This document shows positions 6,285 through 47,434 of a DNA stretch of 64,000 nt, in pieces. The first letter of the stretch is position 1; the number at the start of each line of letters is the position of its first letter. The position numbers and the translations under genes are program-made. This DNA comes from Escherichia coli (GTDB lineage Bacteria > Pseudomonadota > Gammaproteobacteria > Enterobacterales > Enterobacteriaceae): assembly GCA_902500055.1 (NCBI GenBank), contig GCA_902500055.1_4131.1. The stretch is one strand, 5' to 3'. A model generated the notes under the pieces. The model did not search any database, was not told the DNA's origin, and was given only the letters and a program-made list of their open reading frames with translations.

Positions 6285-6372
6285 AATTTTGTTTCCTTTT
6301 ATTGGTGGGGGAGAACTATTCTCCCCTTGATGTAAACTATTATACAGTACTGATATACTTTGTCAAATACTT

Positions 6373-21915: not shown

Positions 21916-22027
21916 CGTTTTAATCTCTTAAAAGTGAGTAGGGAAGTGTTCCCGCTCTCGATGTAAAACATTATACGCTTTTTTCAGTACTGTGCAAGTA
22001 CTTTCTACAAATACTTTTAAAATAGTT

Positions 22028-22127
22028 TTCTTTCTATATAGGGGAACTATTATTCAGTACTGAATCAATCCAGGGGAACTATCTTTCTATATAGGAGTAC
22101 TATTATTCAGTACTGAATCAATCCACT
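22028..22127. repeat. tandem direct repeat, 2 x about 45 bp
   Basis: TCTTTCTATATAGG(G/A)G..ACTATTATTCAGTACTGAATCAATCCA occurs twice in tandem. Confidence 0.7.
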
Positions 22128-22277
22128 AAATCATCCCTATACCCCGTAAAACGGCCTCAGACGCATTCTAACGCATTAATACACCTAAGCTATACATTTG
22201 CACCATTCTAATCATTCCAGGGCTTTACGGGCCGTTTAAACGCGTTAAATTATTTTCAATTATTTTGTTTTTAGGTA

Positions 22278-22305
22278 TTGACTTGATCCTGAAAAAGCGT
22301 ATAAT
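22278..22305 (+). promoter_or_regulatory. near-consensus sigma70 promoter in non-coding hub
   Basis: TTGACT-16 nt-TATAAT. Confidence 0.5.
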
Positions 22306-22420
22306 TACTACATAGACGCGAGAAAGCGGAAACCCCAGGGGGTGCGGAATTACGCCCAAAATTCAAGATATAAAAAAAGGATACACTCCCGCACCCTAGC
22401 AGGCAAACGCACTTTCTCAG
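22306..22420 (+). ncRNA. candidate small RNA unit 1 (speculative)
   Basis: Downstream of promoter 22278-22305; no ORF; shares CGAGAAAG, GGGTGC and TTACGCCCAAAATTCA blocks with unit 2. Confidence 0.25.
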
Positions 22421-22493
22421 TACTGAAATATAGTACCATAGTCCGGCCCAGGATAGCAAGCAAATTAATTAAAATTTTTTTGCTTCCAGGGTA

Positions 22494-22521
22494 TTGCTTT
22501 ATTTTTTCAGTACTGTATAAT
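22494..22521 (+). promoter_or_regulatory. near-consensus sigma70 promoter with extended -10
   Basis: TTGCTT-16 nt-TG-TATAAT. Confidence 0.5.
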
Positions 22522-22600
22522 AGTTCCATCAAGTCGAGAAAGACTCAAGCCCACCGGGTGCATAGTTACGCCCAAAATTCAGTACTGAAAAAATTTTTAA
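22522..22600 (+). ncRNA. candidate small RNA unit 2 (speculative)
   Basis: Downstream of promoter 22494-22521; paralogous to unit 1; no ORF. Confidence 0.25.
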
Positions 22601-22618
22601 AAATATCCGTCCAGGCCG

Positions 22619-22647
22619 TTGACATTGCCCCCAGTTTATAAGATAAT
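22619..22647 (+). promoter_or_regulatory. near-consensus sigma70 promoter
   Basis: TTGACA-17 nt-GATAAT. Confidence 0.45.
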
Positions 22648-22740
22648 GATTCCAGATTCAGAAAAATCTAACTCCAGATACTGCGGGGAAACTATCCCCA
22701 CGCGGTAGGGGAACTATTGGAAAAAACAAAATAAAATTTT

Positions 22741-22875
22741 GATTTAGCCGTCTATACTTCCAGACGTGTAACCATCTAGCCGTTTAGCCGTCCAAACGTC
22801 TAGCCATCCAGCCATCCAGAAATCTAGCCGTTTAGCCGTCTAGATGGATAGCCATCTTTACTTCCAGACTTCTGG
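22741..22875. repeat. iteron-like short direct and inverted repeat cluster
   Basis: TAGCCGT/TAGCCAT heptamer about 8 times, CTAGCCGTTTAGCCGTC twice, palindrome CCATCTAG/CTAGATGG, ACTTCCAGAC twice. Confidence 0.65.
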
Positions 22876-23925
22876 AGGGCTAGACATATCTACGTCCAAA
22901 ATCCACCCAGGGTAACTACACCCAAAATCCGTCAGTACTATACCATAGATCTATCTTTTGAAAGGGAGTATTCAGTACTGCCATCATAGCCCTCACTATG
23001 TTACCCTAGGAGGATGAAGACCATCATGTAGTACTGAATACTGTTAGAGGGAATCCACCAGCTTGTGCTGGTGGCATAATGCATTAAATTAAAATCAGTA
23101 CTGACACCATTCTGTTAATATCAGTACTGTTTATATTACGAAAAAAGAGGTTATAAAAAGATGTACCACCCATAGGAGGAACTATCCTTTCAGTACTGTC
23201 TCACGACAGGAGGTAGAGTGAATGAATTGTTTGCGGCAACTCATCTCTCTATGTAGAACATTATACAGTACTGAATCATAATGTCAATAGCTTTCTTTCA
23301 TTATTCAGTACTGATATTCTTGAGAACTACCCGACTACAAACATCATTATATCCCACAAATCATAAACGTCCCAACGTAAATTTCAACTTTCGAAGATCC
23401 AACTTTTATTTCATAGGTACTCCAAAATTTTTAGGATCGAGATTTAGGATGGAGTACTAACCAACTTTTTGCTGGAGCCTCAAGGGGTAATGGAATTTTA
23501 CCCCGAAGGGTAAAAGGGTAATTGTAATTAAGGTGAAAGTAATAATTCAGTACTAATCATTGTGTGATTACTTTTGATTACATTTGATGTAATTTGCAAA
23601 ATGGAAAAGGAGCTTGGAAACTACAAAGTACGGCAGACTTCCTCTGCCTACTTAGTGGGATATCAGTACTGAATCATTCACACACATTTCCGTGCATTCT
23701 TGAGCAATCTTGTCTATACTAATCAGTACTGAATCATATATAATCATTCTGTGATTCTACGGTGCTCATATAAATGTTTATATATGATTACTTATGACTA
23801 CCTATGATTACGGGGTTTAGCCTGGGGAGAATCCTAGTGATCGCATTTGTCCAGGCTGAATTTTAACAATTCGCCTGTACATAAAGGTTGTTCACTAGGA
23901 GCTTCCCCTGTCTCTATGTGTTTAA

Positions 23926-24117
23926 TTACTTTCTATATATAAGCATTAAGATATAGTAGTACTGATTATACTGTACATTCTCTTTAATATTATAAGGGTC
24001 TATAGCAATCTCGGTACATCTGTTAAATGCATATCTATTAAATGCCAGTGGAATTATAGATCTAATCCATACTTGTTCATTTTCTTTTAGTTTACTTATA
24101 TAGAAGTTTTTATACAT
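23926..24117 (-). CDS. family B small hypervariable protein
   Basis: ORF track 63 aa; termini MYKNFYISKL...ILMLIYRK. Confidence 0.6.
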   Translation of the reverse strand: MYKNFYISKLKENEQVWIRSIIPLAFNRYAFNRCTEIAIDPYNIKENVQYNQYYYILMLIYRK

Positions 24118-24132
24118 AGTATTCTCTATTAA

Positions 24133-24315
24133 TTAATATGATAGTACTAGTGTTAGTACTGAGCACAATTGTTCTTTATAGTTCTTATGGTATATAGAAT
24201 CTTTTATGCACTCATTGAAGTGCCATAGGTATAATCTTGGGTCGCATTCTTTATATATTCTTACGGGGACGAATGTTAGTTTTCGTATATAGAATTCTTT
24301 ATGTTCTTTATTCAT
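24133..24315 (-). CDS. family B small hypervariable protein
   Basis: ORF track; MNKEHKEFYIRKL...LTLVLSY. Confidence 0.6.
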   Translation of the reverse strand: MNKEHKEFYIRKLTFVPVRIYKECDPRLYLWHFNECIKDSIYHKNYKEQLCSVLTLVLSY

Positions 24316-24316
24316 A

Positions 24317-24505
24317 TTAGTACCTGAATATAAGTAGGATTATGTTATAGTACTGGTTAGTACTGCAATGATTCTCTATACATCGATTAACAGTTATGGA
24401 ATAGCTATATCTGGCGTAAGCATTATCCAGCGGGATTTTACATTGAGCACTTAGAGAAAGTACAGTAGGTAGTGTATTCAAATAGAAGTCTTTGTAATTA
24501 TTCAT
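24317..24505 (-). CDS. family B small hypervariable protein
   Basis: ORF track; MNNYKDFYLNTLP...ILLIFRY. Confidence 0.6.
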   Translation of the reverse strand: MNNYKDFYLNTLPTVLSLSAQCKIPLDNAYARYSYSITVNRCIENHCSTNQYYNIILLIFRY

Positions 24506-24707
24506 ACAGGAATAGTATACCTATGATACCTGAGTACAGGTTAGTACTGTTACCATCTTCGTTTGCGTTTAAAGTCATTTGAATACAATTATTGTAGCAT
24601 ACTCTGCCGAAAAATGTATTAGTACTTAAAGGTGGAGTAGTCCTTAGAAACATTTGTTCTGAGGGGCTGAGGTGTTTGGAGTAGTATTCTTTATGTTCTT
24701 TATTCAT
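24498..24707 (-). CDS. family B small hypervariable protein
   Basis: ORF track; MNKEHKEYYSKHL...ILFLYE. Confidence 0.6.
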   Translation of the reverse strand: MNKEHKEYYSKHLSPSEQMFLRTTPPLSTNTFFGRVCYNNCIQMTLNANEDGNSTNLYSGIIGILFLYE

Positions 24708-24712
24708 ATTAG

Positions 24713-24898
24713 TTAGTGTCTGTATATAAGTAATAGTAAGAATACGTACTGCACTTGTTCATCTTTAGTATTGAGTACTGTACGTATTGCGTCATTAAAC
24801 AAGAATATAGTACTTGGGTCATGAGAATTTAAAGGGGTTCTGGGTACGGCATGTTTGTAGTTCCCTTTAACAAATTGTGTGTAGTATTCTCTATGCAT
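24713..24898 (-). CDS. family B small hypervariable protein
   Basis: ORF track; MHREYYTQF...LLLLIYRH. Confidence 0.6.
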   Translation of the reverse strand: MHREYYTQFVKGNYKHAVPRTPLNSHDPSTIFLFNDAIRTVLNTKDEQVQYVFLLLLIYRH

Positions 24899-24899
24899 A

Positions 24900-25085
24900 T
24901 TAGTACCTATATATTAGGGCGATAATGTAGTACAATTCATATGGAATGTAATTTGGGGTGATCGCACACTGTGTATGGTAAATGAATTGTTCGGTATTTT
25001 TCTTATCCTTGATATCTATTGGGATTAGTGGTATAAGCATTTGGGAGTTTAGATCGAGATGGCTTAAGTAGAATTCTTTATGCAT
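24900..25085 (-). CDS. family B small hypervariable protein
   Basis: ORF track; MHKEFYLSHL...IIALIYRY. Confidence 0.6.
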   Translation of the reverse strand: MHKEFYLSHLDLNSQMLIPLIPIDIKDKKNTEQFIYHTQCAITPNYIPYELYYIIALIYRY

Positions 25086-25094
25086 ATTGTTCTT

Positions 25095-25283
25095 TTAGAA
25101 TACGAAAGCTAGGTACAGGGTATGATACAGTACTCGATGATAGCTATCAAAATCTAGTATACATGCTTTAGTGCACATAGTAAAGTACACTTTATCGTTT
25201 TGTGCAATGATACCGCGAGGTTTATCTAATAGATTAGTACTGAGGTACATTGGGAAATATTTTGTGTAGTATTCTTTATGCAT
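25095..25283 (-). CDS. family B small hypervariable protein
   Basis: ORF track; start trimmed to Met16 (MHKEYYTKYF). Confidence 0.6.
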   Translation of the reverse strand: MHKEYYTKYFPMYLSTNLLDKPRGIIAQNDKVYFTMCTKACILDFDSYHRVLYHTLYLAFVF

Positions 25284-25284
25284 A

Positions 25285-25467
25285 TTAGTACCTGAATATA
25301 AGTAGGATAGTGTTATATAGCTGGTCATAACTACTACTATTTTCTATACTTCGTTCTATGCAGTTATTGAATCCCAGTACTGCCAAATCGTTATCCATAG
25401 GGACTTTGTATCTGGCGTAGTGTTCAAAAATGCTGGGGAGAAATTGTGTGTAGTATTCTTTGTGCAT
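25285..25467 (-). CDS. family B small hypervariable protein
   Basis: ORF track; MHKEYYTQFLP...ILLIFRY. Confidence 0.6.
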   Translation of the reverse strand: MHKEYYTQFLPSIFEHYARYKVPMDNDLAVLGFNNCIERSIENSSSYDQLYNTILLIFRY

Positions 25468-25468
25468 A

Positions 25469-25660
25469 TTAGTACCTATATATTAGTAAAAGGATGTGAT
25501 ACAGTACTCGATTATAGTCTTCAATATATATCGAGGATTTAGTGCACTTAATGAAATAGTCTTTTTCGTAGTCTTTTTCTATACTCAATTGTTTTGTTGG
25601 TACAAGGTGTTGGAGATACATTGGGAGTTTCTCTATGTAGTATTCTTTGTGGTTATTCAT
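25469..25660 (-). CDS. family B small hypervariable protein
   Basis: ORF track; MNNHKEYYIEKLP...LLLIYRY. Confidence 0.6.
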   Translation of the reverse strand: MNNHKEYYIEKLPMYLQHLVPTKQLSIEKDYEKDYFIKCTKSSIYIEDYNRVLYHILLLIYRY

Positions 25661-25668
25661 ATTATGTG

Positions 25669-25848
25669 TTATTTCGTGAAAACAAGGGTTAGTACTGCAT
25701 AGTACAAGTCATACGTATCTTTAGGGTTAATAGCACCTTTAATACATTCTTTCATTACTTCATTATAGATAATTTTAGTACTGAATGTATTGGATGTTAC
25801 TATATCGGAATTAAGGTACGAGAGGTAGAATTCTTTATAAGTATTCAT
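25669..25848 (-). CDS. family B small hypervariable protein (59 aa, below ORF-track cutoff)
   Basis: Manual translation MNTYKEFYLSYL...YYAVLTLVFTK. Confidence 0.5.
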   Translation of the reverse strand: MNTYKEFYLSYLNSDIVTSNTFSTKIIYNEVMKECIKGAINPKDTYDLYYAVLTLVFTK

Positions 25849-25849
25849 A

Positions 25850-26032
25850 TTAGTACCTGAATGTTAGCATTACTACGTAGTACAGCATATATGGATTATC
25901 ATCGTATATGAGCGTGTACTTAGTACATTGTTGGAACATTATCTTTGCGTGATCTTTGATACCCAATGCAACGTTTGGTATATGGTGTTGTAGATGCATT
26001 GGGATTTTATCTTTGTAGTATTCTTTATACAT
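25850..26032 (-). CDS. family B small hypervariable protein
   Basis: ORF track; start trimmed to Met22 (MYKEYYKDKIP). Confidence 0.6.
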   Translation of the reverse strand: MYKEYYKDKIPMHLQHHIPNVALGIKDHAKIMFQQCTKYTLIYDDNPYMLYYVVMLTFRY

Positions 26033-26684
26033 AGTTTGAAATATACGTAATGAGGTGATGAAATTTCTTATCAGTACTGATAAGTTCCTGTACATGTTTT
26101 GTTAGTTTGTACGCGTTTTTATAGAGTTCTGGATTATCGATTACAGTACTGTACATGAATTCTTCTTCTGGTGTTAATTCTTTGTTTTGTAGTTCTTTGA
26201 GGAATTGCAGTACTGTATCAGTTTCGTTAGTACGTTGCTTTTGGAAGAAGTGCATGTTATCGTGTATTTTTTCTGAACCCATGCAGTACATATCGCCGAT
26301 TTGGAATTGTGCAGTACTGATATCATGGGTGCTATTACAATTCCCGAAGAAGTATACATTCCCGAAAGATAGAATTATAGTGCACGGGATATTATCCATG
26401 TGTATATAGATAGATGCATTCTTTAGTGCTTTTGTGCTGGTATTAGTACTCAATACTTTTAAATCAGTATGATAGATATTAATAAAAGCAAGAGCTATAT
26501 TATTTTTCTTCAAGTACGATTTGAGGTTCTTAGATACGAGAACATTTCTGGATTTTTTCTTTTTATTTCGTTTCTTTAGTACATTAGGGTGATACGTATA
26601 TGCAGATGTAATAGATTCTGCTTGAATACTGTTGAGGTACTTAAAGTGCTTAAGGTATTGTTTGCTGTGTGCATTAAGTTTCAT
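26025..26684 (-). CDS. hypothetical protein (219 aa) embedded in family B array
   Basis: ORF track; long ORF in AT-rich DNA; no family B motifs. Confidence 0.55.
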   Translation of the reverse strand: MKLNAHSKQYLKHFKYLNSIQAESITSAYTYHPNVLKKRNKKKKSRNVLVSKNLKSYLKKNNIALAFINIYHTDLKVLSTNTSTKALKNASIYIHMDNIPCTIILSFGNVYFFGNCNSTHDISTAQFQIGDMYCMGSEKIHDNMHFFQKQRTNETDTVLQFLKELQNKELTPEEEFMYSTVIDNPELYKNAYKLTKHVQELISTDKKFHHLITYISNYV

Positions 26685-26694
26685 TTGGTTTCCT

Positions 26695-26874
26695 TTATAC
26701 AGATGCTAGTGCGAGGATTTCCCTGAAGGGATTATCTTTTGTTAGTGCGTGATGAATGCAGCTATTGAGATTAATATTTTTAGTACTGTTAGTTGCCAGG
26801 TTGTAGTACTTCACGAAGGTGTCGTACATGAAACGGTCTTTAATGCTTATGTGTTCTATATAGTATTCTTGCAT
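26695..26874 (-). CDS. family B-like small protein
   Basis: ORF track; start trimmed to Met26 (MQEYYIEHIS). Confidence 0.5.
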   Translation of the reverse strand: MQEYYIEHISIKDRFMYDTFVKYYNLATNSTKNINLNSCIHHALTKDNPFREILALASV

Positions 26875-26882
26875 ATTATTCC

Positions 26883-27062
26883 TTACATAGAGATGAGTTT
26901 CAGTACTTCTCTGTACGTGTACTTTTCGTTTTGTGCTTCTACTGTACATGATAGAAAGTATCGTTTTTTATCTCTTTTGTTCCCGACTGTGTAGTACCTT
27001 TGGAATTTATTATAGTTGTATCTATCTTTGTGCTGAAGTTTATAGATATAGAATTCTTGCAT
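26883..27062 (-). CDS. family B-like small protein (59 aa, below ORF-track cutoff)
   Basis: Manual translation MQEFYIYKLQHKDRY...EVLKLISM. Confidence 0.5.
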   Translation of the reverse strand: MQEFYIYKLQHKDRYNYNKFQRYYTVGNKRDKKRYFLSCTVEAQNEKYTYREVLKLISM

Positions 27063-27070
27063 AGAGTACC

Positions 27071-27256
27071 TTAGATAGAGATTAGTTTCAGTACTTCAAT
27101 ATATGTGCGGTACTCTGCTTTAATTAAATTTGTACACACTGTAAGGGAATTTCTTTGTATAAGTTTATTGCCGCTTTTATACGCATTTCTCCACACATAG
27201 AGATGAGATCTTTCTGGCATAGATAGTTTATTTGTATAGTACTCAAATGTATTCAT
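27071..27256 (-). CDS. family B-like small protein
   Basis: ORF track; start trimmed to Met8 (MNTFEYYTNKL). Confidence 0.55.
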   Translation of the reverse strand: MNTFEYYTNKLSMPERSHLYVWRNAYKSGNKLIQRNSLTVCTNLIKAEYRTYIEVLKLISI

Positions 27257-27266
27257 AGTATTCTCT

Positions 27267-27452
27267 TTACATATCAATAAGTTTCAGTACTGCTCTGTAC
27301 GTGTACTTAGTTGTTAGTGTTTCTTTTATAGCAGTACTGAAGTAATGTTGTTTGTCCCTTATACTACCGCGTTTGTAGTACCATACATGGGAGTTGTGGG
27401 TGTACTTGTCCCTGTCGGATAGATTTTGGTAATAGTATAATATATGATTCAT
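27267..27452 (-). CDS. family B-like small protein
   Basis: ORF track; MNHILYYYQNL...AVLKLIDM. Confidence 0.55.
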   Translation of the reverse strand: MNHILYYYQNLSDRDKYTHNSHVWYYKRGSIRDKQHYFSTAIKETLTTKYTYRAVLKLIDM

Positions 27453-27661
27453 GGTAATGTAATTAGCCTTATTATGTTAAAGTACTCGGTTCCTGGTACA
27501 CCTTGTAGAATATTATCAACTACATTTTCTTGGTGCAGGATTAATACATTCGGTGCGGTTCTTTTAAGGTTTTTTAAAGTACTGTATTCTTGTTTAAGGA
27601 TGAACTGTACATCTTTAGGGAGAATATCTAAGTAGTACTGGTGTATGTTCATAGTTTTCAT
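27449..27661 (-). CDS. family B-like small protein
   Basis: ORF track; MKTMNIHQYYLDILP... Confidence 0.55.
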   Translation of the reverse strand: MKTMNIHQYYLDILPKDVQFILKQEYSTLKNLKRTAPNVLILHQENVVDNILQGVPGTEYFNIIRLITLP

Positions 27662-27672
27662 ATAGTACTCTT

Positions 27673-27858
27673 TTAGAACTTAAAGATGAGGTTCATGATA
27701 GATAAGTACTTAGTTTCAGGAAATTGATGTTCTATTGCATAACGTGTCTCCAGTCTGAAGTCAAATTTATAAAAGGGACTATTCATATCCATAGGTTCAT
27801 TGGGAAATGAATCTCTGTATTGTTTGTGCAGCTTACTACAGTAGAATTCTTTATACAT
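27673..27858 (-). CDS. family B-like small protein
   Basis: ORF track; MYKEFYCSKL...IMNLIFKF. Confidence 0.55.
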   Translation of the reverse strand: MYKEFYCSKLHKQYRDSFPNEPMDMNSPFYKFDFRLETRYAIEHQFPETKYLSIMNLIFKF

Positions 27859-27859
27859 A

Positions 27860-28072
27860 TTAGTGCTCGATTAAAAGGGTTAGGATGTAATAGTATTGCA
27901 TACTTTCTACCCCTTGTACAGCATTTCTTATTTTATTATTCCTGTACGAGTTCAAGAGTTTAGGACAATGTTTGAAGTTTATATAATTATTTTGTGTATA
28001 CAGTAGGCTTTCTCGTAGACCTTTTGTTGGTAGTGCATCGATGTAGTACTGTTCAATGTTCATAGTGTTCAT
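27860..28072 (-). CDS. family B-like small protein
   Basis: ORF track; MNTMNIEQYYIDALP... Confidence 0.55.
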   Translation of the reverse strand: MNTMNIEQYYIDALPTKGLRESLLYTQNNYINFKHCPKLLNSYRNNKIRNAVQGVESMQYYYILTLLIEH

Positions 28073-28296
28073 AGAGCTACCAGTACTAAGATTTTTGATA
28101 ATTGTTTATTGCTATCCCCGCAGATGGTGCTGTGTAAAATACTCACTACAAGGGTATCAAGTGCATTGTTCAGCATAAGGTTACATCCAGTACTGTTATG
28201 TGTTTTTAGCTCTATTAGCCACGAACAATCCGCGAGAAACTTACCGTACTCTAGTTCATTTAGAGTATTAATGTAGTACTTAAGTGTAGCTGTCAT
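28069..28296 (-). CDS. family B-like small protein (first gene of minus array)
   Basis: ORF track; start trimmed to Met19 (MTATLKYYINTL). Confidence 0.5.
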   Translation of the reverse strand: MTATLKYYINTLNELEYGKFLADCSWLIELKTHNSTGCNLMLNNALDTLVVSILHSTICGDSNKQLSKILVLVAL

Positions 28297-28398
28297 GTGT
28301 AGTTCTCCTTGTATTCCTTCTATAGTACACCAGTACTGAAAGGATGTCAAGGGTTTTGTTTATGGGGTAAATATGATATAATGAATAAAGGAGGAAAT

Positions 28399-29304
28399 AT
28401 GTTACCTTTTGTTAGAATGTTTGATTATGGGAATGAAGCTCCATTACCAGCCCCAAATGGTGGTATACGAACTCAATTTACCACATCACCAGTACCTTCA
28501 GCACGAAATAACTTTGGTTATACGTATGATGCATCAAGAAATACTGCTTATATATTTGGTGGTATAATGAATACTTCGAACCAGGATAATCAGTTATGGA
28601 GTTTTAATTTAAATTCTAGAATATGGGTACAATTATCATCACCACCAGTATCCACCTATGGAAGTGCATTGTGTGCCTATCAAGGAAAAATATATTTGTT
28701 CGGTGGTTTAGGTGCAGCGAATGTTGCTAATAATAATTTTTATGTATATGACATAAGCTCTGATACATGGACACTGAATAATACAAGTGTTGGCAAACCT
28801 AACCAGGCAGTATATAGTAAGATGATTACTACAGGGGATAAGATATATTTGTGGGGTTCACCGTCTAATACTGCATTATATAGTTATACGCCGAGTACTA
28901 ATACATGGGCATCGTTAGGTACTACTGGGAATACAACAAACAATGGTGGTGGTGATATGTGCACTGATGGTACTTACATATATTTTACAGGACAAGGATC
29001 TACTCCTGCACAAAAATATCACATAGAGAGTGCGGTTTGGTCAAGAATGGCAGCAGTTGGTGGAGCTAACCCTAGTAAGATAATTTACAATAGATATGAC
29101 AAAGGTATATATGCAGTATCTTATGGTGCATTAAATTTATTAAAATATGATGCCGAGCAAAACAAATGGATACCATTAGCTATCAATACAACGTTGAGTA
29201 ATAGTACTGGTGCATTATTTGGCTCTAATAATAGTGCTGAAATATTTTACGTACTTGGTTACGACAACGGGACACGTGTTAATACGCAGTATGTTTTTAA
29301 ATAA
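28399..29304 (+). CDS. family C member 1: conserved N-terminal peptide + Kelch-like beta-propeller
   Basis: AGGAGGAAAT-ATG; N-terminus MLPFVRMFDYGNEAP; six blades with IY.FGG/W pattern. Confidence 0.8.
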   Translation: MLPFVRMFDYGNEAPLPAPNGGIRTQFTTSPVPSARNNFGYTYDASRNTAYIFGGIMNTSNQDNQLWSFNLNSRIWVQLSSPPVSTYGSALCAYQGKIYLFGGLGAANVANNNFYVYDISSDTWTLNNTSVGKPNQAVYSKMITTGDKIYLWGSPSNTALYSYTPSTNTWASLGTTGNTTNNGGGDMCTDGTYIYFTGQGSTPAQKYHIESAVWSRMAAVGGANPSKIIYNRYDKGIYAVSYGALNLLKYDAEQNKWIPLAINTTLSNSTGALFGSNNSAEIFYVLGYDNGTRVNTQYVFK

Positions 29305-29316
29305 TTTGGAGGAAAT

Positions 29317-30466
29317 ATGTTACCTTTTGTAAGAATGTTTGATTATGGGAATGAAGCACCTACCAACTCTGGGCGTTTTAAAATATATTCCAGTGATTCT
29401 ATGTATCTTCATGATACTTATACTGATAAGTTGTATGCATCTTCTGCGACGAATTGGGGTACTGGTACAGGTGTAGCATCGAGTAAATTTATTCTTTGTG
29501 CGGAGAATGTTAAACGAGTTCTATTGGAAGATAACAGTAGTGATTGTCAATTGTATGAAGAGAAAGGTACTGGAAAAGTTTTTATCACTGGTAACACGAA
29601 GGCATTCACTGGTGTAACTGATAGAAAAACTTTGTGGACGGACTGTACTACGTGGATAACATCAAGTGGTATTAATGTTTCTGATATAAAATACATGAGT
29701 AGTTTTTATGATATGAAGGTGAATTTGATAACAAACGATGGTACATTGTATTGTTGTGGAACTAACAATATATCGAACATATCATCATTTGGTGATGGCA
29801 CAAACATTAATTCTTTTAACACATTCAAAAGAGTAGATACTATAACTTCGGTTAAAAAGGCAGTTGGTAACATTTATTTGCGAGAAGATAATACTTTATG
29901 GGGTTGTGGTTTTAACTATTACTACCAGTTGGGTACTGGTAATCAAACTTCGATTACTGGGGTGACGATGATTTCTTCGGATGTTATAGATTTTGATGTA
30001 AGTTATCAGAGTACATTTTTTTATCAAATCGGATAATAATTTGTACGCATGTGGGAAGCAGTACGGAGCACAATATGGTAATGAATTTGGCACAGGTGGA
30101 ACATCTACTAGTACTGATATTCAATACAAGACTCCTACATTATTGAGTACAGGGGTATATGGTGTATATGCATGTGTTGCTAACATGGCATCACATATTG
30201 TCAAAGCAGATGAAGTTCTATATGCTTCTGGATCGAATGGGTTTGGGCAATTAGGTGTTGGTAATAATAATAATCAGTACTCCTATACTCCTTCATATAC
30301 TTCGTTTAATACTTCGTGTAATTTGGTACGCACTCCATCTGGTTCACTTATACTTACTGACACTTCGAAGTTATATTATTCGGGTGCTTCATTTGTAGTA
30401 ATGGGTGGTAGTGCTGGACAGAACGTTCTTAATTATACCGAAGTCGATATGTCATTTGTGCAGTAA
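29317..30466 (+). pseudogene. family C member 2, interrupted by frameshift at T7 tract (pseudogene, phase-variable or sequencing error)
   Basis: ORF 29317-30036 (MLPFVRMFDYGNEAP...) continues in +1 frame as 30041-30466 with RCC1-like repeats; T7 run at 30016-30022; a T6 run would fuse them into about 383 aa. Confidence 0.6.
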
Positions 30467-30475
30467 ATTAATATA

Positions 30476-30502
30476 CCAGTACTTGATACTGGCTTTTTTT
30501 GA
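30476..30502 (+). terminator. family C cassette terminator hairpin
   Basis: CCAGTACTTGATACTGG followed by T7. Confidence 0.6.
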
Positions 30503-30534
30503 TTAAATATAGTATAATGAATAAAGGAGGAAAT

Positions 30535-31644
30535 ATGTTACCTTTTGTAAGAATGGTTAAGTACGGGAATATTGCACCAGTACCGAAAAAAATAAAGAAA
30601 GTTATAGCAGGATATGATAATTTATATGTACTATATGGTGATGGTTCGCTATATGGTTGTGGAATCAATAACTATCAACAGTTAAATATTGATGGAACTG
30701 CTACACAAAATAATTGGGTACTAATTACCAATGGTGTTAGTAATGCATGGGCTGGTGGATACAATATTTTATATTTGAAAGAAGATAAATTTATAATGCA
30801 CGGAACTAATGTCTCATTAGGTTTAGGAAATACTACAATTCCATTAGGTGGAGTAGATGTAACTTCTTCATTCCCAGATATCTCTAATATTAAAATGATA
30901 TCCATTGGTTTTGATTCAATGCACTATGTTAGTGCTGATGGTACAACTGTATATGGAAGAGGTATGAACACAAATGGTTCTGTTGGTTCAGGTAGTACTT
31001 ACTCACAGAGTACTTTCACTTCAGTACTGAATAATGGAACTAATCAGGTTATTGATATATTTGGTAACGTTAATAATACAGTGCTTCTAACATCGAATGG
31101 TGAGCTTCGAGCATGTGGGACAAGTGCTTATGGTTCTATAGGAAATGAAACTGGTAAGTGGACATCGTTTGGTTTAAAATTATCTGGCACTAAAATAATG
31201 GGTGGTAATGGGTATAGTACGCTTGCATATACAAATTCGGGAATGTACCACTCAGGGTGGCAGTTAAATGGGGAACTAGGAAATGGTTTAGATACTAACG
31301 TACAGGTATATCCATTTCAATTTAACTCTAAAACGATAGATAGCAAGATAGATAAAATTGCCAAATCATCATCTGGGTCATATGTTAACATGTACTCAAC
31401 AACAGAAGGAAAGATATATACGACAGGTTCGTTTGGTAAAAACGGGTCAACTACTGCATTGAATTTGTTCACCAATACATTAACACTTATAAATTACAAT
31501 CCAGATACCGCCTCGTTGTATACGTGCACAAACTTCAGTGTTGTGTATGATGGTAATGAAACTATTGCTGTAAGTGGTAGTCCTACATATGTACCAGGGG
31601 GCGTTGCCGCTAATAGATGGACTACAATTCCATTACCCAAGTAA
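30535..31644 (+). CDS. family C member 3: N-terminal peptide + RCC1-like beta-propeller
   Basis: TATAAT, AGGAGG, MLPFVRMVKYGN; repeats LYGCGINNYQQL, VYGRGMNTNGSVG. Confidence 0.8.
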   Translation: MLPFVRMVKYGNIAPVPKKIKKVIAGYDNLYVLYGDGSLYGCGINNYQQLNIDGTATQNNWVLITNGVSNAWAGGYNILYLKEDKFIMHGTNVSLGLGNTTIPLGGVDVTSSFPDISNIKMISIGFDSMHYVSADGTTVYGRGMNTNGSVGSGSTYSQSTFTSVLNNGTNQVIDIFGNVNNTVLLTSNGELRACGTSAYGSIGNETGKWTSFGLKLSGTKIMGGNGYSTLAYTNSGMYHSGWQLNGELGNGLDTNVQVYPFQFNSKTIDSKIDKIAKSSSGSYVNMYSTTEGKIYTTGSFGKNGSTTALNLFTNTLTLINYNPDTASLYTCTNFSVVYDGNETIAVSGSPTYVPGGVAANRWTTIPLPK

Positions 31645-31650
31645 TACTAT

Positions 31651-31678
31651 GCCAGTACTTGATACTGGCTTTTTTTGA
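31651..31678 (+). terminator. family C cassette terminator hairpin
   Basis: GCCAGTACTTGATACTGGC followed by T-run. Confidence 0.6.
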
Positions 31679-31711
31679 TTAAATATAGTATAATGAATAA
31701 AGGAGGGAATT

Positions 31712-32839
31712 ATGTTACCTTTTGTTAGAATGTTTGATTATGGGAATATAATCGAAGTTAATAATATAAAGAAAAGTGTTGTTAGTTACACTCTTGAAAT
31801 GTTTCTAATGCAAGATGGCACTGTATATGCACACGGTGAAGATTCAAACTATAATGCGGGTTTAAGTACAAAGTTTGTATCGTTAGGAGCAGTTCAACAA
31901 ATCACAACTGAAGTTGATGACTTATGGTTAGGATCGTTTTCCGTTGTTATTAAAGGTGATAAAATATATGGTTCAGGTTCAACATATGCATTCACGAATT
32001 CTAATACTTTCCAACAAGGATATACTGACTGGGCTGTGTATTTCACTGGTATAGATGTTACCCAAATTAAAAAAATGTTATGTGGTTATACAGCATTTAC
32101 ATTAATGAAAGACGGAACACTTTATGGAAGAGGATGGAATCGAAGTGGTTCATTAGGTTTAGGACATAAAAATTATGTTTCAGCGTGGACTGTACTTGAC
32201 ACTAATGTGGATAATATATTTGGCGGTTACCTTGGCGATACATTGTTTAAGATTAAAAACGATGGAACTGTATATGGTTCAGGTTCAAATAACAGCTTTC
32301 AAGTTAAAGCAACATCGGGTGATGCAACCACATTTGTTCCGTTGTTTGATGATATATCTTATGATATAAAATGCAGTTTTGTTTCTGGTGTTGGTTTTGT
32401 AATGATAACATCTGATAATAAAATATATGCAACTGGAACTACTTTTGCTGGTAGTGGTGCACATAGTAAAGTTTTTGATGTTGGTTTTACTATAGGTGAT
32501 ATGAGTAATATATATCATCCTGATTCGTTGGACTATTCGACTAGTGTTGTATTTTTAATTAATGCAGATACAAACAAACTAATAGCAACTGGGCATACCC
32601 CATTTACGGGAAGTAGTTCAAGTTCCCTTCCATATTTTACAGCATTTCAAGAATTCAATTTTACATCGTTCAATTCGAATACACGATATAGTGGGTCTTT
32701 ATACTGGAATACATTTTACGAAGGTAATAATGTATGGATGAATGGATATAATCCTAAAAATACGGGTGGAAAGAATTTCTCATTGTGTTCAATACCGTTA
32801 GATACTATTATTACTAAGCAAATTGATTTACCTTTTTGA
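31712..32839 (+). CDS. family C member 4: N-terminal peptide + RCC1-like beta-propeller
   Basis: MLPFVRMFDYGN; repeats LYGRGWNRSGSLGLG. Confidence 0.8.
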   Translation: MLPFVRMFDYGNIIEVNNIKKSVVSYTLEMFLMQDGTVYAHGEDSNYNAGLSTKFVSLGAVQQITTEVDDLWLGSFSVVIKGDKIYGSGSTYAFTNSNTFQQGYTDWAVYFTGIDVTQIKKMLCGYTAFTLMKDGTLYGRGWNRSGSLGLGHKNYVSAWTVLDTNVDNIFGGYLGDTLFKIKNDGTVYGSGSNNSFQVKATSGDATTFVPLFDDISYDIKCSFVSGVGFVMITSDNKIYATGTTFAGSGAHSKVFDVGFTIGDMSNIYHPDSLDYSTSVVFLINADTNKLIATGHTPFTGSSSSSLPYFTAFQEFNFTSFNSNTRYSGSLYWNTFYEGNNVWMNGYNPKNTGGKNFSLCSIPLDTIITKQIDLPF

Positions 32840-32846
32840 ATACTAT

Positions 32847-32877
32847 GCCAGTACTCAAGTACTGGCTTTTATTTTTG
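32847..32877 (+). terminator. family C cassette terminator hairpin
   Basis: GCCAGTACTCAAGTACTGGC followed by T-run. Confidence 0.6.
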
Positions 32878-32911
32878 ATTAAATATAGTATAATGAATAA
32901 AGGAGGGAAAT

Positions 32912-34105
32912 ATGTTACCTTTTGCTAGAATGGTTAAATACGGGAATAAACTGCCTATTCCTGATCCAGTTGAGTTCACTGATGTTTTACAGCAACATTA
33001 TACTAATGCTATGTATCTACATAAGCCCACGAATACACTATACGGTTATGGTGGTAATAACTTGAGCCAATTAGGTCTAGGGAATCGATCGGCAGTTTCT
33101 ACTTTTACAGTACTGGCAACGCACTGTGCAGCCTTTTGGTTAGGCGTTCATGGATCATTGATGATTGACTTGGATAATAGAATATATTTCACAGGGAATA
33201 CAGTAGCATTCCCCGATTATGGAGATGCAACTCCAGTTAATGGTTATTTTAGAACATGGACTGATGTTACTGCCGCATTTAACAAAATAAATGTACACGC
33301 TAATTTAATCAAGAGTGTACATATAGGTGAAAGTACTAGAATATTACTACACGATGGAAGAGTCGTTGTTTGTGGTAAAAATGCAAATGCCGAATGTGGA
33401 ACAGGTAACCAAAATCCCATTCCAGTACTAACAGTTGTTACTGGTATGGGTGAAGTTTCTCAATTGGCGTGTTCATTACAGGGTACGCACTATCTCAAAA
33501 CAAATAAAGAAGCATGGTTTTGTGGTAAGGATAACTTTGGTGAAAGTGGTGGTGGGACTAGCTCATACGTTTTTACTAATAAATTAATACGAACCAACGT
33601 CGATTATATAAGTACTACTTATGATGTTACCTGGTGGTTTACTGCCGGTAGGGTGTACTGGAGTGGTAGAAACAATTCTGGACAAGCTGGGAATGGTACT
33701 ACTTCAACTACAAACCAATTAACTACAGTTCAGAATTCACAGGTTATAGTGAATATTAGTGATGGTTTCCTGTGTCCTAGTAATATGGGTAACTCAACAA
33801 TTGGTGCACCTATGGCTCAATACCCATCATATGTCAGGAGTGCAGGCATCAATACATATGGTCAAGAAGGGACGGGAAATACAACAATAATTACTTCGTG
33901 GGGGGCGTTTTCTTTAAGTGCGATACAGGGTGGATATGACAATGTTCTTATGGCATCCAAAGACTGGTCCAGAACAATAATTATAACTAAAGATTATAAA
34001 TTATATGCATGTGGGGGCTTTAACGGTTCAGGTAGTAAATTACCGGATGGTACTTACTTAATTAAAACATTAACATTAATGCCAACGCAGTTATGGCAAT
34101 CATAG
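32912..34105 (+). CDS. family C member 5: N-terminal peptide + RCC1-like beta-propeller
   Basis: MLPFARMVKYGN; repeats LYGYGGNNLSQLGLGN, VYWSGRNNSGQAGNG. Confidence 0.8.
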   Translation: MLPFARMVKYGNKLPIPDPVEFTDVLQQHYTNAMYLHKPTNTLYGYGGNNLSQLGLGNRSAVSTFTVLATHCAAFWLGVHGSLMIDLDNRIYFTGNTVAFPDYGDATPVNGYFRTWTDVTAAFNKINVHANLIKSVHIGESTRILLHDGRVVVCGKNANAECGTGNQNPIPVLTVVTGMGEVSQLACSLQGTHYLKTNKEAWFCGKDNFGESGGGTSSYVFTNKLIRTNVDYISTTYDVTWWFTAGRVYWSGRNNSGQAGNGTTSTTNQLTTVQNSQVIVNISDGFLCPSNMGNSTIGAPMAQYPSYVRSAGINTYGQEGTGNTTIITSWGAFSLSAIQGGYDNVLMASKDWSRTIIITKDYKLYACGGFNGSGSKLPDGTYLIKTLTLMPTQLWQS

Positions 34106-34114
34106 GAGAAAATC

Positions 34115-35224
34115 ATGTTACCTTTTGTTAGAATGTTTGATTATGGGAATATCACACCTGGTCCTAAAAATATAATTAAAGTTGGTGCTTCTACACAGGG
34201 TCAATTCTTATTGACAGATTCACATGATTTATATTACATAGGTAGAAATCAAGGTGGTGAATCTGGAAATGGAAATACCAACACAGTATCCTCATGGATA
34301 TTAGTAAGTACAGATGTTTCTAATTTTTTCGTGGGTGATCGTACACTTGTTATTATTAAAAATGATAATACGATATGGTCATCAGGTCAAACGTACTGGT
34401 TCACATCTTCCACAACTACTTCTTACAGTACTGTATTAGTTGATAGAACCAGTTGGTTCACAAATGCAATACCAGTAAGTGAAATTGCTAATATTGTATG
34501 TACATATGGTTTAATATTTGTACTTAGCACTAATTCAGTACTCTATGGTGCAGGGGCTAATGGATATCGTGGTGCTTTAGGTATTGGTTCATCATCAATT
34601 TACACATTAACTCAATGTGCTACTAATGTGCGTAAAGTAATGACGAATTCAAATGACAGTATGTATATTACATTAGATAATAAGTTATATAGTTCTGGGT
34701 GGAATGACAGGGGTCAGCATGGCACGGGGAACCGAACACAAATTAACACGTGGGGATTACGTAGTACTGGAGTAATAGATGCAGCTATTGGTGGACATAC
34801 ACTCAATTACTATAATGGTACATCATATTTCACATGTGGTACAACTCCAAACTTTCTTAGTTCAGATTCAACTACATTCAAAGCAGTTCCTGTAAGTACT
34901 TTACCTAATAATTCACCTTTGTTTATGACAAATTCAGAGGCAACAAGCACGGCTACGCAAATTATATTAACTAGTGCATATCAGAAAGGTATTGGGGGAA
35001 ACCGTGGTTTGGGATTAAACAATTCTCAAACGGGTGCTATCTATAGTGCTGCTAATTTACAATTACCTGTAGAAGTTAGTGAGATTAGTGATGTTGCTTT
35101 TAGTGACGGATTAACATCATTATTAACCAAAGACGGGAATGTATATAGTACTGGATCGTATTACGCCATTCCAGGTGCAAGTGCAGATGTTGCAGTCTTT
35201 ACTAAAATTGATTTACCAAAATAA
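34115..35224 (+). CDS. family C member 6: N-terminal peptide + RCC1-like beta-propeller
   Basis: MLPFVRMFDYGN; follows member 5 with no terminator (co-transcribed); repeats LYSSGWNDRGQHGTGN. Confidence 0.8.
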   Translation: MLPFVRMFDYGNITPGPKNIIKVGASTQGQFLLTDSHDLYYIGRNQGGESGNGNTNTVSSWILVSTDVSNFFVGDRTLVIIKNDNTIWSSGQTYWFTSSTTTSYSTVLVDRTSWFTNAIPVSEIANIVCTYGLIFVLSTNSVLYGAGANGYRGALGIGSSSIYTLTQCATNVRKVMTNSNDSMYITLDNKLYSSGWNDRGQHGTGNRTQINTWGLRSTGVIDAAIGGHTLNYYNGTSYFTCGTTPNFLSSDSTTFKAVPVSTLPNNSPLFMTNSEATSTATQIILTSAYQKGIGGNRGLGLNNSQTGAIYSAANLQLPVEVSEISDVAFSDGLTSLLTKDGNVYSTGSYYAIPGASADVAVFTKIDLPK

Positions 35225-35230
35225 CATAAT

Positions 35231-35260
35231 GCCAGTACTCAAGTACTGGCATTTCTTTTT
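35231..35260 (+). terminator. family C cassette terminator hairpin
   Basis: GCCAGTACTCAAGTACTGGC followed by T-rich run. Confidence 0.6.
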
Positions 35261-35295
35261 GGGGTAAATATAGTATAATGAATAAAGGAGGAATT

Positions 35296-46660: not shown

Positions 46661-47434
46661 TTAAATTTTCTCAAGGAACATATTCTCTGCCATTGATTCC
46701 CAATCGTATGGGAATTTATTATACAAACCAGCGATCAGTACTGGCATACGCAGTGATGGACTACGCAAACGTTCTTCGTTGTTCAGCATCCAATTCAGGA
46801 TTGCTTTACAACCATTTTTGTTAACACCATTGTTTTCAAGGATGTTAGTTTTGTTCATGATGTTCTCAATGTGAATCATCACTTCTTCGTTGGTGAACAG
46901 TTGCAGGTCAACAAAGATACTACGAGTGATCAGTGCATCGATGTGTGGTGCTAAGCTGCTTTTACCTTTAGCAATCTGTGACAGGTTTTTGTTAGTCAGA
47001 AAGATTACTTTACCACGGAATTCAAACTGCTTAGGGATACCCTGCTGTTCCAGGTACTTAGCAGAAGTCGCGTAAGAAACTACACGCTTCTCTGACGTAT
47101 CCAACACAGCTTTAAGCAAATCAATATTAGTCTCGTCAGAGAAGATATCAACGTCATCAAGTAACAGTACTGATGCGGCATGACGTGAACGATACAGTGC
47201 TTCGTACAGACCCAAAGTAGTTACTTTACCACTGATTTTCTTGTAGTCGATTTCAAAGTTATCATCAGCTTTCTGTAACCGTTGGTCAACGTTATAAGTT
47301 TTACCAACACCACCTTTACCTGATACGATCAGAGAGTTGATAGAGTTAGCTTGTGTATCAAGAAGGCATTCCAGTGCAGCCATCATGCTATTGAAGTTTT
47401 TTTCGATTTGGATTGCTTTCTCTTGACGGGTCAT
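46661..47434 (-). CDS. P-loop ATPase with deviant Walker A (ParA/MinD-like)
   Basis: SGKGGVGKT Walker A and VLLLDDVD Walker B. Confidence 0.6.
   Translation of the reverse strand: MTRQEKAIQIEKNFNSMMAALECLLDTQANSINSLIVSGKGGVGKTYNVDQRLQKADDNFEIDYKKISGKVTTLGLYEALYRSRHAASVLLLDDVDIFSDETNIDLLKAVLDTSEKRVVSYATSAKYLEQQGIPKQFEFRGKVIFLTNKNLSQIAKGKSSLAPHIDALITRSIFVDLQLFTNEEVMIHIENIMNKTNILENNGVNKNGCKAILNWMLNNEERLRSPSLRMPVLIAGLYNKFPYDWESMAENMFLEKI

Follow-up and report, generated by a model that had tools for sequence, protein, structure and literature searches.

A 219-codon gene of Asteriusvirus jumbo coliphages is probably a resident around which arrays of small genes multiplied

Overview

The 219-codon gene at 26025-26684 of the window (the whole 64,000-nt stretch of DNA analysed here), hereafter the BIG gene, is a genuine gene, probably vertically inherited and non-structural, and probably a resident around which the neighbouring small genes multiplied, with a likely place in an early-type operon and a proposed intracellular binding role. 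The window matches the Asteriusvirus (121Q/PBECO4-like) jumbo coliphages, with 90-97% nucleotide identity over 23800-28400. The evidence comes from the layout of the locus, the comparison of the array among related phages, and the discovery of distant relatives of the BIG gene at a homologous promoter junction.

Layout of the locus

As the initial annotation of this DNA had described, an ORF of 219 codons lies within the small-gene array. It runs from ATG to TAA on the minus strand. Its orthologues in 121Q and phAPEC6 are gp256 (YP_009101843.1) and gp544c (QDF14167.1), respectively. The features of the locus are as follows.

23926..26032, minus strand: downstream small-paralog block of 11 genes (59-69 aa), the 'd' subfamily, matching phrog_11711; its members end in ...LLIYRY
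26025..26032, minus strand: 8-nt overlap, ATGTATAA, of the end of the BIG gene with the start of the small gene that follows
26025..26684, minus strand: BIG gene (219 aa), ATG at 26684, TAA at 26027-26025; matches phrog_29152
26690..26695, minus strand: Shine-Dalgarno-like AAGGAA, 6-11 nt 5' of the BIG ATG
26695..28299, minus strand: upstream small-paralog block of 8 genes (59-76 aa), mostly of the 'u' subfamily, for which a PHROG search gave no match and whose members end in ...VLKLISM
27673..27858, minus strand: 'd'-like small gene within the upstream block (MYKEFYCSKL...LIFKF)
28322..28350, minus strand: sigma70-like promoter TTGACA-17-TACTAT heading the minus-strand operon, with CAGTACTG in its spacer at 28331-28338
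28399..43468, plus strand: cluster of 13 ORFs of at least 110 codons for RCC1-like/Kelch-like beta-propellers, the first three starting MLPFVRM(F/V)
43449..44111, minus strand: 220-aa ORF, phrog_34359, a very distant paralog of the BIG gene, overlapping the last RCC1-like gene by 20 nt in convergent orientation

The 19 small genes, each of 59-76 codons, follow one another with start-to-start distances of 184-227 nt, the sole exception being the 652-nt step over the BIG gene, so that the reported break in a periodicity of roughly 190 bp is real. The reported 8-nt overlap with the neighbouring start was likewise found, the downstream small gene starting at 26032 and ATGTATAA being common to both genes, as is also annotated in 121Q. 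The BIG gene shares the orientation of the small genes, with a 10-nt gap at its upstream junction and -8 nt at its downstream junction. Its AAGGAA motif runs into the stop codon (26695-26697) of the small gene before it, an arrangement in keeping with closely packed genes that are transcribed together as one operon. The promoter, these two junctions and the Shine-Dalgarno-like site together point to a single transcript, on which the BIG gene is most likely carried with the small genes.

Conservation of the BIG gene

The BIG gene is conserved and under purifying selection, and it is not a chance ORF; an open frame of 219 codons would arise by chance at ~33% G+C with a probability of ~1e-7. The phrog_29152 profile matches the BIG protein with an E value of 1.9e-113, aligning residues 1-219 to profile positions 1-223 of 223, and it also matches 11 of 19 diverse relatives. 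The BIG gene is thus a plain member of this ORFan family, which every record annotates as hypothetical protein. In tblastn, 36 phage records, 32 of them from Escherichia phages and 4 from Salmonella phages, each gave a single copy (35-98% identity). The deposited Asteriusvirus proteins are 71-98% identical to the BIG protein and lie at the same genomic position, the divergent orthologue being that of the JNE01/Turkey5 lineage (36% identity). A search of 5.8 billion proteins returned matches only from the 121Q-like phage group. Over all searches, there are 24 close and ~16 distant homologues, down to ~20% identity.

The dN/dS of the BIG gene is 0.50 against 121Q and 0.30 against JNE01, the range over the orthologues being 0.5 to 0.2-0.3. 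Constraint is distributed unevenly, the identity between the window and JNE01 being 81% over residues 1-37 and 27% over residues 93-219. Among the first 37 codons in this comparison, 18 are identical, 12 differ synonymously and 7 non-synonymously, showing that the N-terminal conservation reflects constraint at the protein level. The BIG alleles also have a mosaic make-up along the gene.

Relation to the small paralogs

The initial annotation held the BIG gene to be unrelated to the small paralogs, and the homology tests support this view. The small paralogs are marked by a length of 59-76 aa, an N-terminal (H/Y)K(E)(Y/F)Y..L and a hydrophobic C-terminal tail, Y..(I/L)L.L(I/V); this length and these motifs are absent from the 219-aa BIG protein, which has only the loose look-alikes SKQYLKHF and HHLITYIS. 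HMMs of the 'd' genes, the 'u' genes and both together pick up all members of the array in the window, 121Q, phAPEC6, JNE01 and Turkey5, but neither the BIG protein nor any of 24 relatives, with E values of 5-25 and negative bit scores for the BIG protein under hmmsearch --max. HMM searches between the BIG family and the small paralogs were non-significant in both directions, and whole-family hhalign gave a probability of 0.4%. Segment-wise tests of the N-terminal, middle and C-terminal parts against profiles of 76 'd' and 36 'u' sequences gave a best P of 0.064, and the segment comparisons overall gave P values no better than 0.015-0.075 over 10-40 columns.

A different origin was weighed against these results, namely that the BIG gene is a fused or expanded small paralog, or conversely that the small genes are stand-alone copies or decay products of a BIG domain, e.g., of the 65-residue C-terminal bundle. 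Short collinear look-alikes speak for it, pairing SKQYLKHF with HKEYYTQF at the N-terminus, EEFMYSTVI with DRFMYDTFV of the adjacent 'u' gene, and hLITYIS with VLKLIS at the C-terminus. The best scores are an hhalign P of 0.015 for the N-terminal segment, P values of 0.064-0.075 with larger profiles, and an hmmsearch E of 0.029 between the gene at 26695-26874 and BIG family positions 167-208. In addition, outgroup phages carry 3-4 tandem BIG copies where core Asteriusvirus has small genes. However, none of these scores is significant (probabilities of 0.1-3%), the aligned stretches shrink to 10-16 columns as the profiles are enlarged, and the small-paralog HMMs match none of the 25 BIG family members. 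The look-alike terminal motifs are therefore non-significant and serve as a lead only, and a shared origin by fusion, expansion or decay, which the homology searches did not find, seems quite improbable.

The two kinds of small gene do match each other, e.g., the gene at 27673-27858 is hit by the 'd' HMM with an E value of 3.7e-10, showing that 'd' and 'u' are two subfamilies of one family. This family (phrog_11711 and its 'u' relatives) resembles the BIG gene in operon, strand, codon style and tight spacing, but its members are 3.5 times shorter and its phylogenetic range is narrower, being confined to core Asteriusvirus.

Two observations concern the small genes themselves. The gene at 27673-27858 is of the 'd' type within the 'u' block; this block also holds one or two such genes in 121Q, phAPEC6 and the Salmonella phages, a sign that genes may occasionally pass from one half of the array to the other. 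An ORF at 47083-47220 on the minus strand, ~19 kb from the array, weakly matches the combined small-paralog HMM (E 2.3e-4) and may be a stray member of the family.

The array within Asteriusvirus

Comparison of the array among related phages showed that the BIG gene is never missing and never moves: it is single-copy and sits at the same boundary between 'u' and 'd' genes in 36 of 36 Asteriusvirus records. What varies is how many small genes surround it: the upstream count runs from at least 4 up to 10, the downstream count from 9 to 12. The counts below were taken from the genomes inspected, the upstream value for JNE01 and Turkey5 being a lower bound.

Window: 8 small genes upstream, 11 downstream
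BF17: 10 upstream, 12 downstream
phAPEC6: 8 upstream, 10 downstream
121Q: 7 upstream, 9 downstream
Salmonella SD phages: 6 upstream, 9 downstream
JNE01 and Turkey5: at least 4 upstream, 10 downstream

The initial annotation had proposed that the BIG gene looks like an insertion into an otherwise uniform array, which would mean that horizontal transfer or illegitimate recombination placed it among pre-existing small paralogs. The gene is indeed 3.5 times as long as the genes next to it, no sequence test relates it to them, and the ~190-nt period is broken at it. Moreover, such an event would pre-date the split of JNE01, so that presence or absence in core Asteriusvirus is, taken alone, compatible with insertion. 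However, none of the 36 Asteriusvirus records lacks the gene or has it elsewhere, and its composition is normal (G+C of 0.337 vs. 0.32-0.33 in the neighbours). The borders, checked for a split small gene, a flanking repeat or target duplication, and a nuclease, integrase or mobile-element gene, showed none of these, and the usual marks of an inserted or mobile gene (patchy presence, odd composition, repeats, a nuclease or integrase) are missing from the BIG gene. Nor is the array uniform across the site, since the small genes on the two sides belong to different subfamilies. The view of the gene as a foreign insert is thus unsupported, and a further argument against it comes from the outgroup phages described next; overall, we judge an insertion to be very unlikely.

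Distant relatives and a conserved promoter junction

An exhaustive HMMER search of 1.84 billion representatives detected five distant relatives of the BIG protein (P0026-P0030, E 2e-11 to 3e-4), and a profile search added eleven further distant relatives. In Escherichia phage EJP2, tblastn located four BIG copies, three of them as a tandem that converges on one end of the RCC1-like cluster and one at its other end. Erwinia phage Hallingskeid has two tandem copies by tblastn, where a search with the Hallingskeid copy as query found itself only, and two uncultured (metagenomic) contigs, L014 and L015, have 3 and 4 tandem copies. BIG members are the first genes past the divergent RCC1-like junction in Hallingskeid, L014, L015 and at one end of EJP2. 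Searched with the small-paralog HMMs, the loci of EJP2, Hallingskeid, L014 and L015 yielded nothing, and tblastn with a small-gene query at E <= 1 found no small paralog in the outgroup genomes, returning only the same 36 core Asteriusvirus records. The BIG family is therefore phylogenetically wider than the small-gene family.

An alignment of the junction from seven lineages shows a constant order, in which the RCC1-like start codon is followed by TATTTACC, a T(T/A)GACA -35 element, a spacer carrying CAGTACTG, and a TAnnAT -10 element; the CAGTACTG in the spacer is imperfect in JNE01, reading CTGGACTG, and the spacer is 17 nt long. Outside core Asteriusvirus, the BIG gene follows this promoter directly, the promoter lying 30-40 nt before a BIG-family ATG, and in the core clade the small genes follow it. 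The promoter of the window (28350->28322) accordingly precedes the first small gene, and it is homologous to those before the BIG genes in EJP2, Hallingskeid and the two uncultured contigs.

The occurrence of the BIG family at a homologous promoter in outgroups with no detectable small paralogs argues against an insertion into a pre-existing array, and it favours the expansion of small genes around a resident gene. The alternative polarity, in which EJP2, Hallingskeid and the two contigs lost their small genes rather than core Asteriusvirus having gained them, is less parsimonious. In the expansion reading, the ancestral position of the BIG gene or genes would be at the head of an operon transcribed from a sigma70-like promoter that diverges from the RCC1-like cluster. 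In core Asteriusvirus, genes of ~60 codons belonging to two subfamilies would then have multiplied by tandem duplication, the 'u' genes arising between the promoter and the BIG gene and the 'd' genes behind it, so that the BIG gene would only look embedded.

One further feature of the junction concerns the other strand. The invariant element TATTTACC reads GGTAAATA on the strand of the RCC1-like genes, and it may be a T4-late-like promoter of these genes.

A second paralog at the far end of the RCC1-like cluster

The BIG family HMM matches the 220-aa ORF at 43449..44111 weakly but end to end (E 0.009), and when this ORF was combined with its BF17 and JNE01 orthologues, hhalign aligned it to the BIG family over 185 columns with a probability of 96.65% and an E value of 4.8e-10. 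Its family, phrog_34359, resembles the BIG gene in length, in an FQYS...Y motif, in strand and in flanking the RCC1-like cluster; unlike the BIG gene, it has neither the IPC motif nor the MKLN N-terminus, is assigned to a separate PHROG, and shows pairwise identity of only ~12-20%. Thus phrog_29152, phrog_34359 and the relatives from EJP2, Hallingskeid and the metagenomic contigs form a superfamily with collinear profile similarity over the whole length and a common C-terminal motif, (S/T)EEExFQxS(T/L)(V/I)I...Y. Members of this superfamily flank the RCC1-like cluster on the opposite strand in the window, EJP2 (both ends), Hallingskeid, L014 and L015. In the window, as in EJP2, they bracket the cluster on both sides, and in core Asteriusvirus the small genes intervene between the BIG gene and the cluster at one end.

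Among Asteriusviruses, the ORF at 43449..44111 falls into three sharply different allelic classes (~98%, 44% and 32% identity), which do not co-vary with the alleles of the BIG gene.

Predicted protein structure

An AlphaFold model based on 17 close homologues reached a pLDDT of 54.6, too low to be of use; the structure described here is a moderately confident model from 25 diverse sequences, with a pLDDT of 75.3 and a pTM of 0.65. The model predicts an N-terminal helix (residues 5-21), a disordered linker (residues 33-62) with 12 K/R, no D/E and a pI of 11.4, an alpha/beta domain (residues ~52-130) carrying a conserved (D/N)N(I/V/T)PC motif, and an acidic helical bundle (residues 153-218, pI 5.2). 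The bundle bears the motif EEExF(M/Q)xSTVIxNPxLY, which across the family reads (S/T)EEExFQxSTVIxNPxLY. For the BIG protein and 19 diverse relatives, Pfam-A gave a best score of 15.3 bits against a cut-off of 24 bits, PADLOC gave no match, and a sequence-profile search of the PDB gave a best E of 0.082. A Foldseek search of the model against the PDB gave a best E of 1.2 (cut-off E <= 1e-3), and against BFVD it retrieved one unnamed viral protein only (E 5e-4).

Natural variants of the protein occur in Salmonella-infecting relatives. The orthologues in Salmonella phages SD-15_S21 (L009) and SD-2_S15 (L010) have in-frame internal deletions, leaving 190 and 137 aa, respectively, and that of Salmonella phage SD-6_S16 (P0023) is frameshifted after residue 91. 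Three of the four Salmonella-infecting relatives have therefore lost the central part of the protein, with the N-terminal 91 residues and the small-gene array intact; the two in-frame-deleted orthologues also keep a C-terminal part of at least 45 residues.

The CAGTACTG palindrome

The palindrome CAGTACTG occurs 72 times in the 64-kb window, compared with ~1 copy expected and a maximum of 4 in 100 shuffles. It is the commonest 8-mer of the window, AGTACT is contained in all ten top 8-mers, and the copies are densest at 21985-23731. In ten cases, the palindrome falls within the spacer of a strict sigma70-like promoter, e.g., TTGACAAAGTATATCAGTACTGTATAAT at 6345 on the minus strand. The uncultured contigs L014 and L015 are also rich in it, with 35 copies in 16.7 kb and 29 in 11.7 kb, respectively. 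An operator or a sigma-specificity element is a possible function for CAGTACTG. The four copies inside the BIG gene were considered as a functional feature of the gene and rejected, as the orthologues carry 4, 1-2 or 0 copies and the sites are unconserved.

The abundance of CAGTACTG in the window and its presence within the promoter that drives the BIG genes in all lineages examined give rise to a more speculative reading, in which the BIG family would be a new type of regulator acting at CAGTACTG in the spacers of sigma70-like promoters, auto-regulating or switching off early promoters. Its basic linker would then lie on DNA and its N-terminal helix on RNA polymerase or the phage sigma factor, within a novel fold. 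We regard this reading as a long shot.

An imperfect tandem repeat of 8-nt periodicity (CGTCTAGC / CATCCAGC ...) occupies 22749-22900. The ~1.9 kb around it (22000-23900), where the cumulative GC skew reaches its minimum, abounds in CAGTACTG and inverted repeats and has no ORF of 110 codons or longer.

Expression and proposed role

The timing of the operon can be approached by analogy with the Rak2-like phage CBB. In CBB, RpoD-like promoters cluster in a region of mostly short hypothetical ORFs (PMC5259590), and the authors suspect that this region contains early host-takeover genes (PMC5259590). Like the BIG operon, the CBB_390-546 region (PMC5259590) is short-gened, mostly ORFan and non-structural, with RpoD-like promoters. 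The BIG operon differs from early blocks such as CBB_390-546 in the CAGTACTG palindrome within its promoter spacer, and its own early timing is putative. Asteriusviruses encode an RpoD-like sigma factor of their own (PMC11895373), so a sigma70-like promoter could be middle rather than early. An early-type operon is thus inferred here by analogy with CBB. Neither CAGTACTG, nor the BIG gene, nor the small-gene array is mentioned in the published accounts of Asteriusvirus, phAPEC6, CBB, Sharanji and fEgEco12 or in a review of jumbo phages.

Mass spectrometry of phAPEC6 virions identified 62 proteins, including the RCC1-like gp549 and gp551 (PMC7247149). Two members of the RCC1-like cluster of the window have virion proteins as their phAPEC6 orthologues. 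The BIG orthologue, gp544c, is missing from these 62 proteins in this one published data set (PMC7247149).

The main rival to a host-directed role is that the BIG family is tied to the RCC1-like virion proteins it flanks, as an assembly factor or chaperone or as a regulator of the cluster, rather than as a host-directed early protein. BIG-family genes abut the RCC1-like cluster in core Asteriusvirus (at both ends), EJP2 (at both ends), Hallingskeid, L014 and L015, and this linkage, spanning at least five lineages, has outlasted divergence to ~20% identity. However, the BIG genes always lie on the opposite strand behind a promoter that is sigma70-like rather than T4-late-like, the BIG gene of core Asteriusvirus stands apart from the junction by at least 4 to 10 small genes, and the central BIG domain is deleted in Salmonella phages that keep RCC1-like genes beside the array. 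Genes for phage fibre chaperones, moreover, usually follow immediately downstream and on the same strand, another point against such a tie. A function bound to the RCC1-like proteins is accordingly considered unlikely, if still the most serious competitor.

The preferred reading remains a host-directed role. The BIG protein would be made, like the products of the small genes, from one polycistronic transcript of early type and would act inside the infected cell by binding a host or phage factor, a mode of action that we infer from the features above. The constrained N-terminal helix and the acidic C-terminal bundle would make conserved contacts, and the basic linker with the central alpha/beta domain would be the fast-evolving, host-specific part, eroded in the Salmonella-infecting relatives.

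Implications

The BIG gene was already catalogued as a hypothetical protein of 121Q-like phages, and the present analysis changes little for biology at large. What is new here is the polarity of the history, with a resident gene and an expanding array, the link between two PHROGs and the outgroup relatives, and the conserved promoter junction. The array is better seen as a conserved landmark gene with a small-gene expansion on either side than as one array with a foreign insert. PHROGs 29152 and 34359, together with the relatives from EJP2, Hallingskeid and uncultured phages, become one fast-evolving superfamily, tied to a conserved promoter junction beside a cluster of RCC1-like virion proteins. 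Among phages with no function assigned to more than 80% of their genes, the BIG gene is thus a defined, conserved and probably early-expressed candidate for knockout and interaction studies.
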